DNA of 64,000 bases from Escherichia coli (GCF_003334335.1 NZ_QOWQ01000021.1); one strand, 5' to 3'; counted from the first letter of the stretch, positions 213 through 4,953 are shown. Program-made: numbers and translations. Notes: generated from the letters alone by a model not told the origin.

Positions 213-2132
213 TCAATCAGCAGCGTATATGTCGCCGCCTTTGATATGCCTGTCAGTTGCAGTTTGTCCGCCGCCCCTGATGCCGGAGATTTCACCAGTG
301 TGAACGGCGTCCCCCCGTTTCTCATCCAGTACCGGCGTCACCTGAATGCTGTTGTTTCCGGCAAACTCAAAAGCCAGTGTGTGCCATCCGTTATCAAAGA
401 CCCCGAACGTATCCAGCTTCGCATTCGGCTTCTTGTGGTACATCGCGTTCAGGTTCGTCGCATCCGTCTGCAGGAAGAAGGACATCAGCATGTCGTTGCC
501 TTCCTCTGCCAGCGTCACTCCCTCCGGCAGGGACGACAACTGCCAGTAAATGCCCAGGGCAAACCGATTCGGCACCAGTGAACCCGGCAACTTAAACCGT
601 ACGCTCACACGTCCCCCCTTCTTCAGTAACTCCACTCCCTGTCCGGCTGCATCATGCTCCAGAAACCAGATGTGGTTTTCCGGTTTATTCAGTTGCAGGG
701 CCTTACCTCCCGTAGCCCCCGCATCACTGACCACCGCTTCAGCAATGTTTTTGTTAACATTGTCTCCACTCGCCGGTTTGTGATAATAGCGCCAGCCCTG
801 TGATGCCAGGTCTTCGCCGGACGCCAGCAGACTCATCAGGGTTCGGTTACTGACCGGGGCTTCCGGCTCTCTCTCCGTACCTTCACCGGAAGGTCCGGTG
901 GGCTTCACCGTATCAGGCTGTTTTCCGGTAATGAATTCAGCGGTTCTCCCGGCATGCACAAGAATCGCCGTTGCCAGACGGTCGGAAATAATCCCACGAC
1001 GTGCCCATGATCCAAAATGCGTTTTACGGTCGGCCGTCGTCCAGGTTTTGGCGTCCGTTCGACCACCGGCTCCGTAATACCCAATATCCGCAACATCCGG
1101 ATCTTCTGACGGCTCGTTGGTACCCACATTTCGCCCGTTTTCATCCGTCATAAACGGCACAAAGAAGATTTTTTTTGCGGATTTCGTCTTGTATGCACCA
1201 TACACCGCATCGTATTGCGAAGAATAAGTCTGCTTCCAGTAGTAGGTCGTGTCGCCACAAATCCAGGGAACCGATGACGGAGAGCCCCCGAGACACTGAC
1301 CTCCGAATTCCGACAGGTCAGAACGATATTTTTCCACCATGGAATCAAACAGCCCCGGCTGAGTGGCGTATGCACCCTGTTTCAAATCAAACTCGCCCTG
1401 CATCCAGACCACTACAAGCAGAATATTTTTAGGGTTGGCCTTCAGTGCGGCCTGAGTACGGGTAAGCAGGTCCTTGTACAGTGGCTTATCTACACCCCAA
1501 CGTGCCGAGGTCTCGCTTGCGCCGGTGGATTCGCTGAAGGTACCTTCATCGCCCGCCAAAAATGCAGAACCACCACGGCAGCACGGAACCAGAAGAATAC
1601 CGGCATTCGCCGGAATAAACGGCAACAATTTCTTCGCGATATGTAATCCCTGCCCCACGCATCCATACTGAGCTGCGCTGGCTTTCGGGTGTGAAAACTT
1701 ACTCAAATCCTGAACATCATGCAGGCAGTGGTCCGCAGGAATAATGTCATTGTAGTTACAGGACGCACCACCCGGCGTGACAGTGCTGCGACGCGCCAGC
1801 TGTTTAATACGCGGGTCCGGACGGTCATATGTCTCCGGCAGCGGAAGCCCTTCACCATACGCCATGCCGTTTGACTGCCCGGCCAGCGCAATGACAAAGT
1901 AATATTCCGGTTCGCTGGTGGTGCTGATAACAGCGCCACCATCACCCGACGGTTGCACCACCACCGGTGTGGTGACATCACCTTCCGCCGCAATGGCCTG
2001 CATCAGGGTATAGGGCGTGATGGCCACCGGACTGCCAAATGGCTGCCACCCCTCCTTCAGTTTTTGTGTCAGTCGCTCCGCAAGGTCTGACGGCGACGCC
2101 GCCCTGACCACATCGTAGTGTTTAAATGTCAT
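213..2132 (-). CDS. nanS-p: Prophage sialate O-acetylesterase (NanS-p type): N-terminal DUF1737-like region plus SGNH/SASA esterase domain
   Basis: 639-aa ORF; GQSNGMAYG esterase motif; N-terminus MTFKHYDVV...EGWQPFGSP typical of prophage NanS-p; sits where Stx-like phages carry it, downstream of the tRNA cluster. Confidence 0.8.
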   Translation of the reverse strand: MTFKHYDVVRAASPSDLAERLTQKLKEGWQPFGSPVAITPYTLMQAIAAEGDVTTPVVVQPSGDGGAVISTTSEPEYYFVIALAGQSNGMAYGEGLPLPETYDRPDPRIKQLARRSTVTPGGASCNYNDIIPADHCLHDVQDLSKFSHPKASAAQYGCVGQGLHIAKKLLPFIPANAGILLVPCCRGGSAFLAGDEGTFSESTGASETSARWGVDKPLYKDLLTRTQAALKANPKNILLVVVWMQGEFDLKQGAYATQPGLFDSMVEKYRSDLSEFGGQCLGGSPSSVPWICGDTTYYWKQTYSSQYDAVYGAYKTKSAKKIFFVPFMTDENGRNVGTNEPSEDPDVADIGYYGAGGRTDAKTWTTADRKTHFGSWARRGIISDRLATAILVHAGRTAEFITGKQPDTVKPTGPSGEGTEREPEAPVSNRTLMSLLASGEDLASQGWRYYHKPASGDNVNKNIAEAVVSDAGATGGKALQLNKPENHIWFLEHDAAGQGVELLKKGGRVSVRFKLPGSLVPNRFALGIYWQLSSLPEGVTLAEEGNDMLMSFFLQTDATNLNAMYHKKPNAKLDTFGVFDNGWHTLAFEFAGNNSIQVTPVLDEKRGDAVHTGEISGIRGGGQTATDRHIKGGDIYAAD

Positions 2133-2314
2133 GAATCCTCCCGGTCGGGATAATGTTGTGAGTCAGATGAGGGGCGGGCTGAAGTCCGGAAGTTACAGGA
2201 CAATGGCAGGAGGAAGACTACAGCCCGCAATACGAAAAAGGCCGCGCAGTTGCGCAGCCTTATGAATTCTGGTTAAAATCCATTCGATTATAAAAATGTA
2301 TATCTCATGCTGTT

Positions 2315-2340
2315 GCCCGAACCCACTCGGGCTTTTTTTT
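2315..2340 (+). terminator. Rho-independent terminator-like hairpin (GCCCGA-n6-TCGGGC followed by T8)
   Basis: Perfect 6-bp GC-rich stem followed by eight T; a second hairpin (GCCCCTC-cgga-GAGGGGC) follows at 2353-2370. Confidence 0.5.
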
Positions 2341-2594
2341 GCCCACAAGAAAGCCCCTCCGGAGAGGGGCTAAAGCCGCGTATCTGTATCATCATGCACA
2401 TGGTGCCGGGTGCCTCCCGGTGAGTTCAGCCCGGTGCCACTAAACCCGCGTCATTCTCGTTTTGATAATCAGAGATTATACCGTCACCAGTCGCCCCTCC
2501 GCTCAGGGGGATTCACCATGCAGGATTTTTTTAACAAAATCCCTGACAGCCAGACAATCATCAACTTGCTGAATTGTGAGGTATTTAAAAATTT

Positions 2595-2617
2595 AGCAGG
2601 GTAACGGATACCCTGCT
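2595..2617 (-). terminator. Hairpin downstream of the phage tRNA cluster (AGCAGGGTA-n5-TACCCTGCT), putative tRNA-operon terminator
   Basis: 9-bp perfect inverted repeat; a T-rich tract follows on the minus strand. Confidence 0.4.
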
Positions 2618-4001: not shown

Positions 4002-4004
4002 TTA

Positions 4005-4028
4005 AAAAACCCGCTATAAAGCGGGTTC
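4005..4028. terminator. Bidirectional rho-independent terminator (AACCCGCT-ataa-AGCGGGTT); candidate tR' on the minus strand and terminator of the 3057-4001 gene on the plus strand
   Basis: 8-bp stem; A-run upstream and T-rich tract downstream on the plus strand, T6 downstream on the minus strand; about 110 nt downstream of the Q-like gene. Confidence 0.6.
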
Positions 4029-4137
4029 CGTGTTAATTTTTATATTGGCGCTAAACCCCATAATTAAAATGATACAAGACAATTTTATGCAAAGTCAAGT
4101 CGGTTGCTCAAAAATCTCTCCGCCAAAGCTGTTCAGA

Positions 4138-4953
4138 TCAGTAACTCGTTGCCTTCTCAAATTCTCTAGCCGCATGCCGCTCACCTTGATGCAGGATATC
4201 AATCAATTTTTCATAGAATGGTTTCCAATTGCGCGACCATGAAGACTGGTGCAGATCGGGAATGTATATTTGAATAGCTCGATGAACATTAGCTGATTTG
4301 ATAGATACGAATCCCTTTCCACTACAACGCTCGCAGATTTTAAACACTGGCACACCACGCTCGCTTGTGGCTTTGCGGTCCAGTACCTCTCCCTTTCCAC
4401 CACAACGACACCTGGCACTTATCACTCCCTTCCCTTTACATACATCGCAAACGACTGGTACAACTTCCGTTACCTCTGTCCATCTTTCCCAGTCTGACGG
4501 TCGAACAGCACGGGAGCGACTGGCCCAATATGGTGCTTTACCCCATGGGTATGAAACCTTACGAATGACCTGCTTACGGGGTGTTAGTCCGGTACCACTG
4601 CAACTATGGCATGTTACGCTGGTGGCCGCCGATCGGGAATACTCAGCAAAAGCAAACTGAGCCAGTACCAGCATACACCAGCCAAATTCACCACCAGCTG
4701 CTTTACGCACATTCTTCGGTGCAATTTCCATCGCGTGACGCGCCAGCGCCTGGACTGCCATCTGCTCATCAGTCTTGCTGATACCGGCCTTCCCGAAGAA
4801 GGCCGCCAGGCCAAACCGCTCACGATTACTGGTGGTACCAATAGCCGCCATAACATCGGTGCCTGTAAGACGTTCCGGAGAGGTTCCTTTCACATCGTCG
4901 CCGATATACATTCCCTGAGGACTGAAGTATTTTAGCGATGCCTCAAGCTTCAT
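4138..4953 (-). CDS. Late-gene antitermination protein Q-like (QuuQ type) with four CxxCxGxG zinc-finger repeats
   Basis: 271 aa; repeats CHSCSGTG, CDVCKGKG, CRCGGKG, CERCSGKG; sits immediately upstream of the tRNA/late region as Q does in lambdoid phages. Confidence 0.65.
   Translation of the reverse strand: MKLEASLKYFSPQGMYIGDDVKGTSPERLTGTDVMAAIGTTSNRERFGLAAFFGKAGISKTDEQMAVQALARHAMEIAPKNVRKAAGGEFGWCMLVLAQFAFAEYSRSAATSVTCHSCSGTGLTPRKQVIRKVSYPWGKAPYWASRSRAVRPSDWERWTEVTEVVPVVCDVCKGKGVISARCRCGGKGEVLDRKATSERGVPVFKICERCSGKGFVSIKSANVHRAIQIYIPDLHQSSWSRNWKPFYEKLIDILHQGERHAAREFEKATSY

Follow-up and report, generated by a model that had tools for sequence, protein, structure and literature searches.

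A probable late-operon leader of a non-Stx lambdoid prophage at yecE in Escherichia coli and its small, empty cargo slot

Introduction

The late region of Shiga toxin 2 (Stx2) phages of the 933W/Sp5 type is laid out in the order Q, pR′, tR′, the transfer RNA (tRNA) genes ileZ-argN-argO, stx2AB, the small RNA (sRNA) pair STnc100/AsxR, nanS-p and S-R-Rz. Here, a prophage late region with the same order of elements, but without stxAB, is described from Escherichia coli. It occupies positions 1-5000 of a 64,000-nucleotide (nt) stretch of contig NZ_QOWQ01000021.1 (assembly GCF_003334335.1), and this whole stretch is called the window in the following. In an original prediction, which was made from the sequence alone, positions 213-4953 had been read as an Stx-phage-like late region with an empty stx slot.

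Several parts of this layout have been described before. In eight Sakai prophages (Sp3, 4, 5, 9, 10, 11, 15 and 17), convergent sRNA pairs were found at the moron site 3′ of PR′ (PMC4104026, Tree et al., 2014), and STnc100 was located 75 nt downstream of stx2 (PMC12370729, 2025). According to a preprint from the Storz lab, the arrangement of pasD/STnc100, esterase, holin and lysozyme is common in E. coli, with less than 3% of the chromosomal PasA loci being located next to stx (bioRxiv 10.64898/2026.05.13.724894). The occurrence of nanS-p in non-Stx prophages has also been published (PMC10462455), and yecE is a published integration site of Stx phages (PMC8065619).

Results

Organization of the late region

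The analysed stretch is very probably the late-operon leader of a non-Stx lambdoid prophage at yecE, assembled according to the standard modular build. Its minus strand contains, from right to left, Q, a pR′-like site, a tR′ hairpin, three tRNA-like genes, a 552-base-pair (bp) interval, nanS-p and DUF1378. The order of Q, a tRNA-Ile-like gene, tRNA-Arg(UCG), tRNA-Arg(UCU) and nanS-p had been predicted correctly, as each of these elements was found at or near the place assigned to it. The features on which the argument rests are the following.

15609-16922, plus strand: prophage integrase gene at the right prophage end, abutting yecE (16949-17674)
4138-4953, minus strand: Q antiterminator gene of the lambda-Q family, 271 amino acids (aa), identified by phrog_127 and by identity to lambda Q
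4069-4098, minus strand: candidate late promoter pR′, the best promoter match in 1-5000 (10 of 12 positions)
4006-4029, both strands: bidirectional terminator hairpin, putative tR′ on the minus strand and the end of a 314-aa open reading frame (ORF) on the plus strand
3057-4001, plus strand: 314-aa ORF, a moron, forming an island of 32-39% GC between tR′ and the tRNAs, convergent with late transcription
2863-2931, minus strand: decayed ileZ homologue, a pseudo-tRNA with the anticodon UAU (Rfam, 32.6 bits; gathering score 29)
2776-2852, minus strand: intact tRNA-Arg(UCG), argN homologue (ARAGORN; Rfam tRNA model, 56.0 bits; alignment)
2685-2761, minus strand: intact tRNA-Arg(UCU), argO homologue (ARAGORN; Rfam tRNA model, 68.1 bits; aligns to argO of Stx2a_F422)
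2652-2669, minus strand: terminator hairpin immediately behind the tRNA genes, which Stx and non-Stx relatives have retained
2580-2647, no strand: variable slot with a 68-bp filler that includes a hairpin; exactly this stretch is replaced by the stx2AB block in phage ASU11
2593-2619, terminator on the minus strand: hairpin with an 11-bp stem inside the filler, a 24-bp insertion therein
2341-2550, minus strand: STnc100-family sRNA gene (Rfam RF02076, 158.7 bits, E 2e-37; gathering score 47)
2285-2337, plus strand: AsxR-like anti-sRNA gene, convergent with STnc100 (Rfam RF02703, 63.0 bits, E 2e-9)
2238-2261, minus strand: terminator-like hairpin directly upstream of nanS-p, invariant across 8 aligned loci
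213-2132, minus strand: nanS-p-type sialate O-acetylesterase gene, 639 aa (Pfam, phrog_143, identity)

The Q ORF matched phrog_127 ("anti-termination protein Q-like", E 4e-98) and, over its full length, lambda Q (30% identity, BLASTP E 9e-36). It is a Q of the lambda type, into which a Cys-rich segment of about 64 aa with additional Cys pairs is inserted relative to lambda Q (roughly residues 122-205). A weak match of this Q to the zinc-finger region of DnaJ (NCBIfam TIGR02349, E 5e-5) was also observed. Its identity amounted to 40% with the Q of phi80 and to 33% with that of Stx2c phages, the latter being the only Stx phages that matched in tblastn. No similarity was found to the 144-aa 933W-type Q of Stx2a_F422 (BLASTP E 0.26), and the gene does not belong to the 933W/H-19B type of Q present in Stx2a and Stx1a phages.

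The 639-aa protein fits the NanS-p architecture, with a DUF1737 domain at the N-terminus (E 2e-15), the catalytic SASA domain (E 2e-7) and a C-terminal domain of carbohydrate-binding type, and is a predicted esterase. DUF6645 was the third Pfam domain recognized (E 1e-38), the match to phrog_143 reached 1015 bits, and amino-acid identity to the NanS-p of the Stx2a phage Stx2a_F422 was 60%. Of the three tRNA genes ileZ-argN-argO only argN and argO are intact, and both are 89-93% identical to their counterparts in Stx2 phages. No tRNA was called by ARAGORN at 2863-2931. Compared with five intact copies of ileZ, this element exhibits a 4-nt deletion in the anticodon stem, a change of the anticodon from CAT to TAT and damage in the D-loop and the acceptor stem; the same element is annotated as "tRNA-Pseudo-TAT" in phage 611R1.

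In Stx2 phages of the 933W/Sp5 type, the order and the orientation of every element are the same, including the hairpin after argO and the position of STnc100 and an AsxR-family anti-sRNA upstream of nanS-p. The region analysed here differs in that stxAB and its promoter are absent, with 68 bp in place of 1341 bp, in its lambda-type Q and decayed ileZ, in an additional 314-aa gene that separates tR′ from the tRNAs and is encoded on the other strand, and in an sRNA/nanS-p flank with only 76-82% identity. The same backbone is also present, without stx, in phi296, the phage fragment Lahn2, the prophage of the O55:H7 strain CB9615 and the yecE prophage of strain SCU-106. There, the tRNAs, a homologous filler, STnc100, an anti-sRNA and nanS-p are likewise contiguous and no protein cargo is present. 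However, phi296, Lahn2 and the O55:H7 prophage lack the 24-bp hairpin, and they contain an intact ileZ and differ in the type of Q and in the anti-sRNA variant, which is AgvB-like in O55:H7.

The order of Q, tRNAs, slot, nanS-p and lysis genes is present, and stx2AB would be situated exactly between the tRNAs and nanS-p, as had been predicted from the layout of Stx phages, but this order is not specific to Stx phages. More than half of the complete E. coli genomes (2975 of 5426) were matched by positions 1-5000, with a median of 2 and a maximum of 16 places per genome, so that the layout is not diagnostic. Commensal and uropathogenic E. coli (UPEC) strains were among these matches. The junction alone (query 2500-2720) was covered to at least 80% in 1266 genomes, and the rows sampled from these matches comprised both cargo-split junctions and, in O157:H7 strains, uninterrupted empty ones. 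Matches in the phage collection were mostly Stx phages, a dominance that reflects what has been sequenced. Among the matches listed, the closest genome was that of SCU-106, which had been isolated from a rectal swab of a healthy student and carries the same yecE prophage. The finding is real but ordinary, since stx-less lambdoid prophages with exactly such an architecture are abundant and have already been published.

The insertion of the prophage in yecE, which had been predicted as well, could be confirmed, as the integrase gene is directly followed by yecE, yecN, cmoA and cmoB. The site is thus a known Stx-phage site and is occupied by a related integrase: the nucleotide identity of int/xis was 93.6% when compared with phiP27, an Stx2e phage, and about 81% when compared with Stx2a phages that bear the label "yecE". 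Only this integration module is common to Stx phages (phiP27), as expected of mosaic lambdoid phages. A former Stx phage must not be deduced from the gene order of Q, tRNA and nanS-p or from the occupancy of yecE.

Promoter, terminators and proposed late transcription

The candidate pR′ resembles pR′ of lambda in its -35 hexamer, in the motif ATAAAATTG of the binding-element region and in a -10-like putative pause element that is followed by GGG. In the alignment of the two promoters, TTGACT-TTGCATAAAATTG stands against TTGACTTATTGAATAAAATTG, and AATTATGGGG against AACGATGGG. Behind the common TTGACT the window contains TTGCATAAAATTG and lambda TTGAATAAAATTG, each followed by the -10 hexamer. 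The pause-like element early in the transcribed region reads AATTAT-GGGG here and AACGAT-GGG in lambda.

A strong hairpin with a T-run is located 33 nt downstream of the -10 hexamer of pR′. On the minus strand this tR′ hairpin comprises 10 pairs, after which TTTTTTAATT follows. The predicted RNA from pR′ to tR′ would have a length of about 60 nt, whereas the 6S RNA of lambda has 194 nt. Within 1-5000, 11 terminator-like hairpins were observed against 5.3 +/- 2.0 in shuffled sequences, which is about twice as frequent, and five of them, on the late strand, are located between Q and nanS-p. This excess of terminator-like sites fits with an operon that is insulated until Q acts.

In the lysogen, pR′ would fire constitutively, giving a transcript of about 60 nt that ends at tR′ (4006-4029). 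Both tRNA-Arg genes as well as the STnc100-family sRNA, the AsxR-like anti-sRNA and the 314-aa moron would use promoters of their own, each with its own terminator. Upon induction, Q would, by homology to lambda, bind the lambda-like element in pR′ and render RNA polymerase resistant to terminators. The polymerase would then pass tR′, run antisense over the moron, cross the tRNAs and read through four more hairpins (2669-2652, 2619-2593, 2371-2352 and 2261-2238) into nanS-p, DUF1378, DUF826 and the lysis genes.

Small RNA pair upstream of nanS-p

The interval 2133-2684 had been described as containing only hairpins and no ORF of stx size. It indeed contains no ORF of more than 64 aa, but it carries the STnc100-family sRNA gene and the convergent AsxR-like anti-sRNA gene. 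About 480 bp of the 552 bp constitute a conserved sRNA module that is also found downstream of stxB in Stx phages. The match to STnc100 is full-length (model positions 1-206), and the gene has a terminator of its own (2352-2371). STnc100 was situated beside nanS-p or a holin gene in all ten related loci scanned, which contain Stx2, Stx1, other cargo or nothing, and also in the Stx2 phage ASU11.

The anti-sRNA likewise has its own terminator (2315-2332), behind which eight T stand in a row. Its 3′ 23 nt, which comprise the terminator stem-loop and the U tail, equal the AsxR consensus exactly. It departs from this consensus at four positions, all of them among the first 16 nt, which form the variable and target-determining part. 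The AgvB model reached 43.4 bits on this gene, below its gathering score of 56. In its general build it corresponds to the pairs described by Tree et al. (AsxR/EcOnc02 with EcOnc27, and AgvB; PMC4104026), in which a short sRNA (about 53 nt), conserved in its 3′ terminator and variable towards its 5′ end, also lies convergent to a longer sRNA. As four of the 16 5′ positions differ from AsxR, whose target is FnrS, the target of the anti-sRNA may be a different one. In RNAduplex predictions against FnrS of E. coli K-12, the 5′ 26 nt of the anti-sRNA yielded -8.7 kcal/mol and genuine AsxR -12.2 kcal/mol, and neither of the two was better than shuffled sequences (fractions 0.68 and 0.41).

A conserved small ORF of 28 codons (ATG at 2518, plus strand), plausible when judged by the window sequence, was considered and rejected, as the relatives show frame-shifting indels and different stops while the nucleotides are conserved. 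With the nucleotides being kept and the frame being broken, the conservation belongs to the RNA, namely to the 5′ end and the promoter of STnc100. As the small RNAs of the gap have been described since 2014, they give the locus little weight as a discovery.

Variable slot and absence of stx

The alignment of the interval to stx-flanking sequence, which had been proposed together with the original prediction, delimits the slot. In blastn against the Stx2 phage ASU11, window positions 945-2579 and 2648-2926 aligned, and between them 1341 bp of the phage stand against 68 bp of the window. The 1341-bp block, which comprises stx2A and stx2B together with the stx2 promoter and 46 nt of 3′ flank, replaces 2580-2647 only. 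The stx slot is thus empty, as predicted, but it comprises these 68 bp and not the whole 552 bp. A multiple alignment confirmed the left breakpoint for two Stx2 phages, with the Stx1 breakpoint being located about 20 nt nearer to the tRNAs. The window carries neither stxA nor stxB, and no stx remnant was found in its 64 kb: tblastn with Stx2A and Stx2B gave chance matches only (E >= 0.5) and blastn-short with the stx2 block gave none.

The filler itself is not unique to this prophage. A homologous filler without the 24-bp hairpin makes up the junction in the stx-less phi296, in Lahn2 and in the prophage of O55:H7 CB9615. With the hairpin in a diverged form, the filler was found in the prophage OkiPb01692 of a bovine isolate and beside the TerB/DUF3927 cargo of the UPEC strain GN4738 (copy B). 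Part of the filler is also common to the 3′ flank of stx1B. In GN4738, the TerB/DUF3927 cargo enters at window position 2646/2648 together with a second copy of STnc100, and in strain U1 the site is held by a pseudogene and a second STnc100 copy. The site between the tRNA terminator hairpin and STnc100 is thus a cargo-exchange site of less than 100 bp that holds stx2, stx1, TerB with DUF3927, or nothing; these cargo categories are samples spread over the match listings and are not counts.

Loci with cargo in the slot contain two STnc100 copies (3839-4048 and 4326-4531 in locus L005, 2756-2965 and 3243-3433 in locus L006). One copy of each pair adjoins nanS-p, and the diverged one (74% identity) adjoins the cargo. 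The cargo modules are suggested to arrive by recombination with an STnc100 and a filler segment of their own. In OkiPb01692 (locus L008, 2777-3100, plus strand), the anti-adapter protein gene iraM is located between nanS-p and STnc100, at the position of the anti-sRNA, and no anti-sRNA match at the gathering score was obtained in this locus.

An empty interval could in principle be an assembly artefact, in which collapsed lambdoid repeats dropped the cargo. With up to 16 copies of the module per E. coli genome, such repeats would be a classic cause of short-read collapse. However, the independently finished SCU-106 genome has the identical junction, with 100% identity over 2500-2720 (221 bp) and 99.4% over 2100-2960 (861 bp), and the same architecture is present in the sequenced phage phi296 and the cloned phage fragment Lahn2. 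An artefact is therefore extremely improbable, and a misassembly, which together with stx remnants had been named as a result that would overturn the original prediction, is not indicated.

Whether stx was lost or never acquired had been left open, and the present comparison leans to the latter for the backbone segment. The flanks of the slot are 93-100% identical to those of non-Stx prophages. To every Stx phage in a collection of 50,697 records the identity is 76-82% on the sRNA/nanS-p side and 89-93% on the tRNA side. One candidate for an Stx phage with a similar left flank (STEC2018-607, hit H78, 96% identity) proved to be another stx-less prophage.

Descent from an Stx-converting phage, with stxAB having been lost by deletion or by recombinational replacement between the tRNAs and STnc100, would account for a gene order as in Stx phages, for breakpoints that lie exactly at the edges of the stx2 block and for an integrase module with 93.6% identity to phiP27 at a known Stx-phage site. 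The Storz-lab preprint also keeps repeated loss of stx after its acquisition possible (bioRxiv 10.64898/2026.05.13.724894). Yet such a loss appears quite improbable here. No stx remnant is present in the window, and the 68-bp filler is not a unique scar, being conserved across several stx-less lineages and contained in part in the 3′ flank of stx1B. Moreover, the flanks that resemble non-Stx prophages so closely are diverged by 18-24% from every Stx phage of the collection, the Q belongs to a family other than the Q of Stx1a and Stx2a phages, and the replication module is like that of phi467 and Fels-1 and not like that of Stx phages. The empty state thus appears, from these alignments, to be a common and widespread allele of the backbone rather than a deletion scar. 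Taken together, the lack of any stx remnant, the shared filler, the flank identities and the non-Stx Q and replication genes make it most likely that the backbone segment never carried stx.

Several points weigh against the interpretation as the leader of a non-Stx prophage that never held stx. The promoters, the action of Q and the read-through are deduced from sequence resemblance alone. The score of the AsxR-like match is exactly the gathering score of Rfam and hence borderline. Recombination between co-resident lambdoid prophages could swap an stx segment without leaving a scar, so that "never acquired" is unprovable for the whole lineage. The decayed ileZ represents some erosion of the prophage, and neither attL nor the structural genes are contained in the window, so that the prophage may or may not be inducible.

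These last points also bear on the idea that the prophage is a defective, non-inducible remnant and that its parts are relics instead of a working late-operon leader. The lysis genes, like the structural genes, are located outside the window, and 611R1, the phage record with the highest similarity over Q and the tRNAs, is a partial genome of 21 kb. On the other hand, Q, NanS-p, primase, helicase, integrase and excisionase are all encoded by intact ORFs, the module of SCU-106 runs on into complete lysis and terminase genes, and 611R1 was deposited as a phage genome. A mere remnant is accordingly considered unlikely, and the preferred reading remains that of a late-operon leader in a non-Stx lambdoid prophage.

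The 314-aa open reading frame

The moron at 3057-4001 is the one real cargo gene of the region and had been missed in the original prediction. It matched phrog_7003, a family of unknown function (E 4e-118), and no match was obtained in Pfam, NCBIfam, PADLOC or the PDB sequences. Close homologues (59-98% identity) were obtained from E. coli, Kluyvera and Ewingella, and the Ewingella gene, too, is encoded opposite to the Q and holin genes that flank it. A profile search yielded 550 representative clusters of about 300 aa in Gamma- and Betaproteobacteria, and none of the 76 family members scanned contained a Pfam domain.

Three residues, C52, C57 and C81, do not vary within the family, and H61 is almost invariant. 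The AlphaFold2 (AF2) model reached a predicted local distance difference test (pLDDT) value of 95.6 with 76 diverse sequences and of 56 with 14 close ones. A Foldseek search with the model found no relative with a solved fold in the PDB (E > 1) and only uncharacterised proteins in AFDB50. Distant members were found directly after a cI-like repressor gene, directly behind the gene of a Type ISP restriction enzyme that a conjugative element carries, and within the early region of a prophage. Such contexts are typical for protective genes expressed in the lysogen, although this is an association only. It is tentatively conceivable, though far from established, that the moron belongs to an uncatalogued family of lysogen-expressed accessory genes directed against other phages (superinfection exclusion or single-gene defence) and acting via the conserved Cys/His site. 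This uncharacterised family is the only element of the region that could repay experiments.

The codon usage was also noted: AGA encodes 8 of the 20 Arg and ATA 6 of the 19 Ile in the moron, and AGA or AGG encodes 13 of the 30 Arg in the integrase. The moron adjoins the intact tRNA-Arg(UCU), and the AUA-reading ileZ homologue is decayed.

Early region and left end of the window

The early region (about 8400-15600) encodes, according to the annotation transferred from SCU-106, a LexA-family repressor, a ParE-like toxin, an SPFH-domain protein and an ORF6N-domain protein. Replication relies on a DEAD-box helicase and a toprim primase like those of phi467 and Fels-1 and not on lambda O and P. Beyond the prophage, SCU-106 contains IS621 between cmoB and torZ (13090-14070 in locus L004 of this genome). 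The corresponding part of the window (about 19900-20040) appears to be without it, judged from the spacing of the ORFs in the window and from a coverage of 88% in three pieces.

At the left end the late operon leaves the window, heading to DUF826, holin and lysozyme. One further feature is located there.

1-33, minus strand: first 11 codons (MTFVHQVMLYF) of the DUF1378 gene, read from the sequence and from the SCU-106 annotation

In the annotation of SCU-106, DUF1378 overlaps the site that matches the start of the window and is followed by DUF826, holin, lysozyme and terminase. In the nanS-p/DUF1378 intergenic region (34-212), neither an Rfam match nor a good -10 hexamer was found. It contains a TTGACA at 52-57 and a plus-strand terminator hairpin at 148-160, whose stem can be read in a longer form from about 134 and which is followed by seven T. 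A putative sRNA convergent with the late operon may thus be located there, at the place where the Storz-lab preprint puts PasA/PasC.

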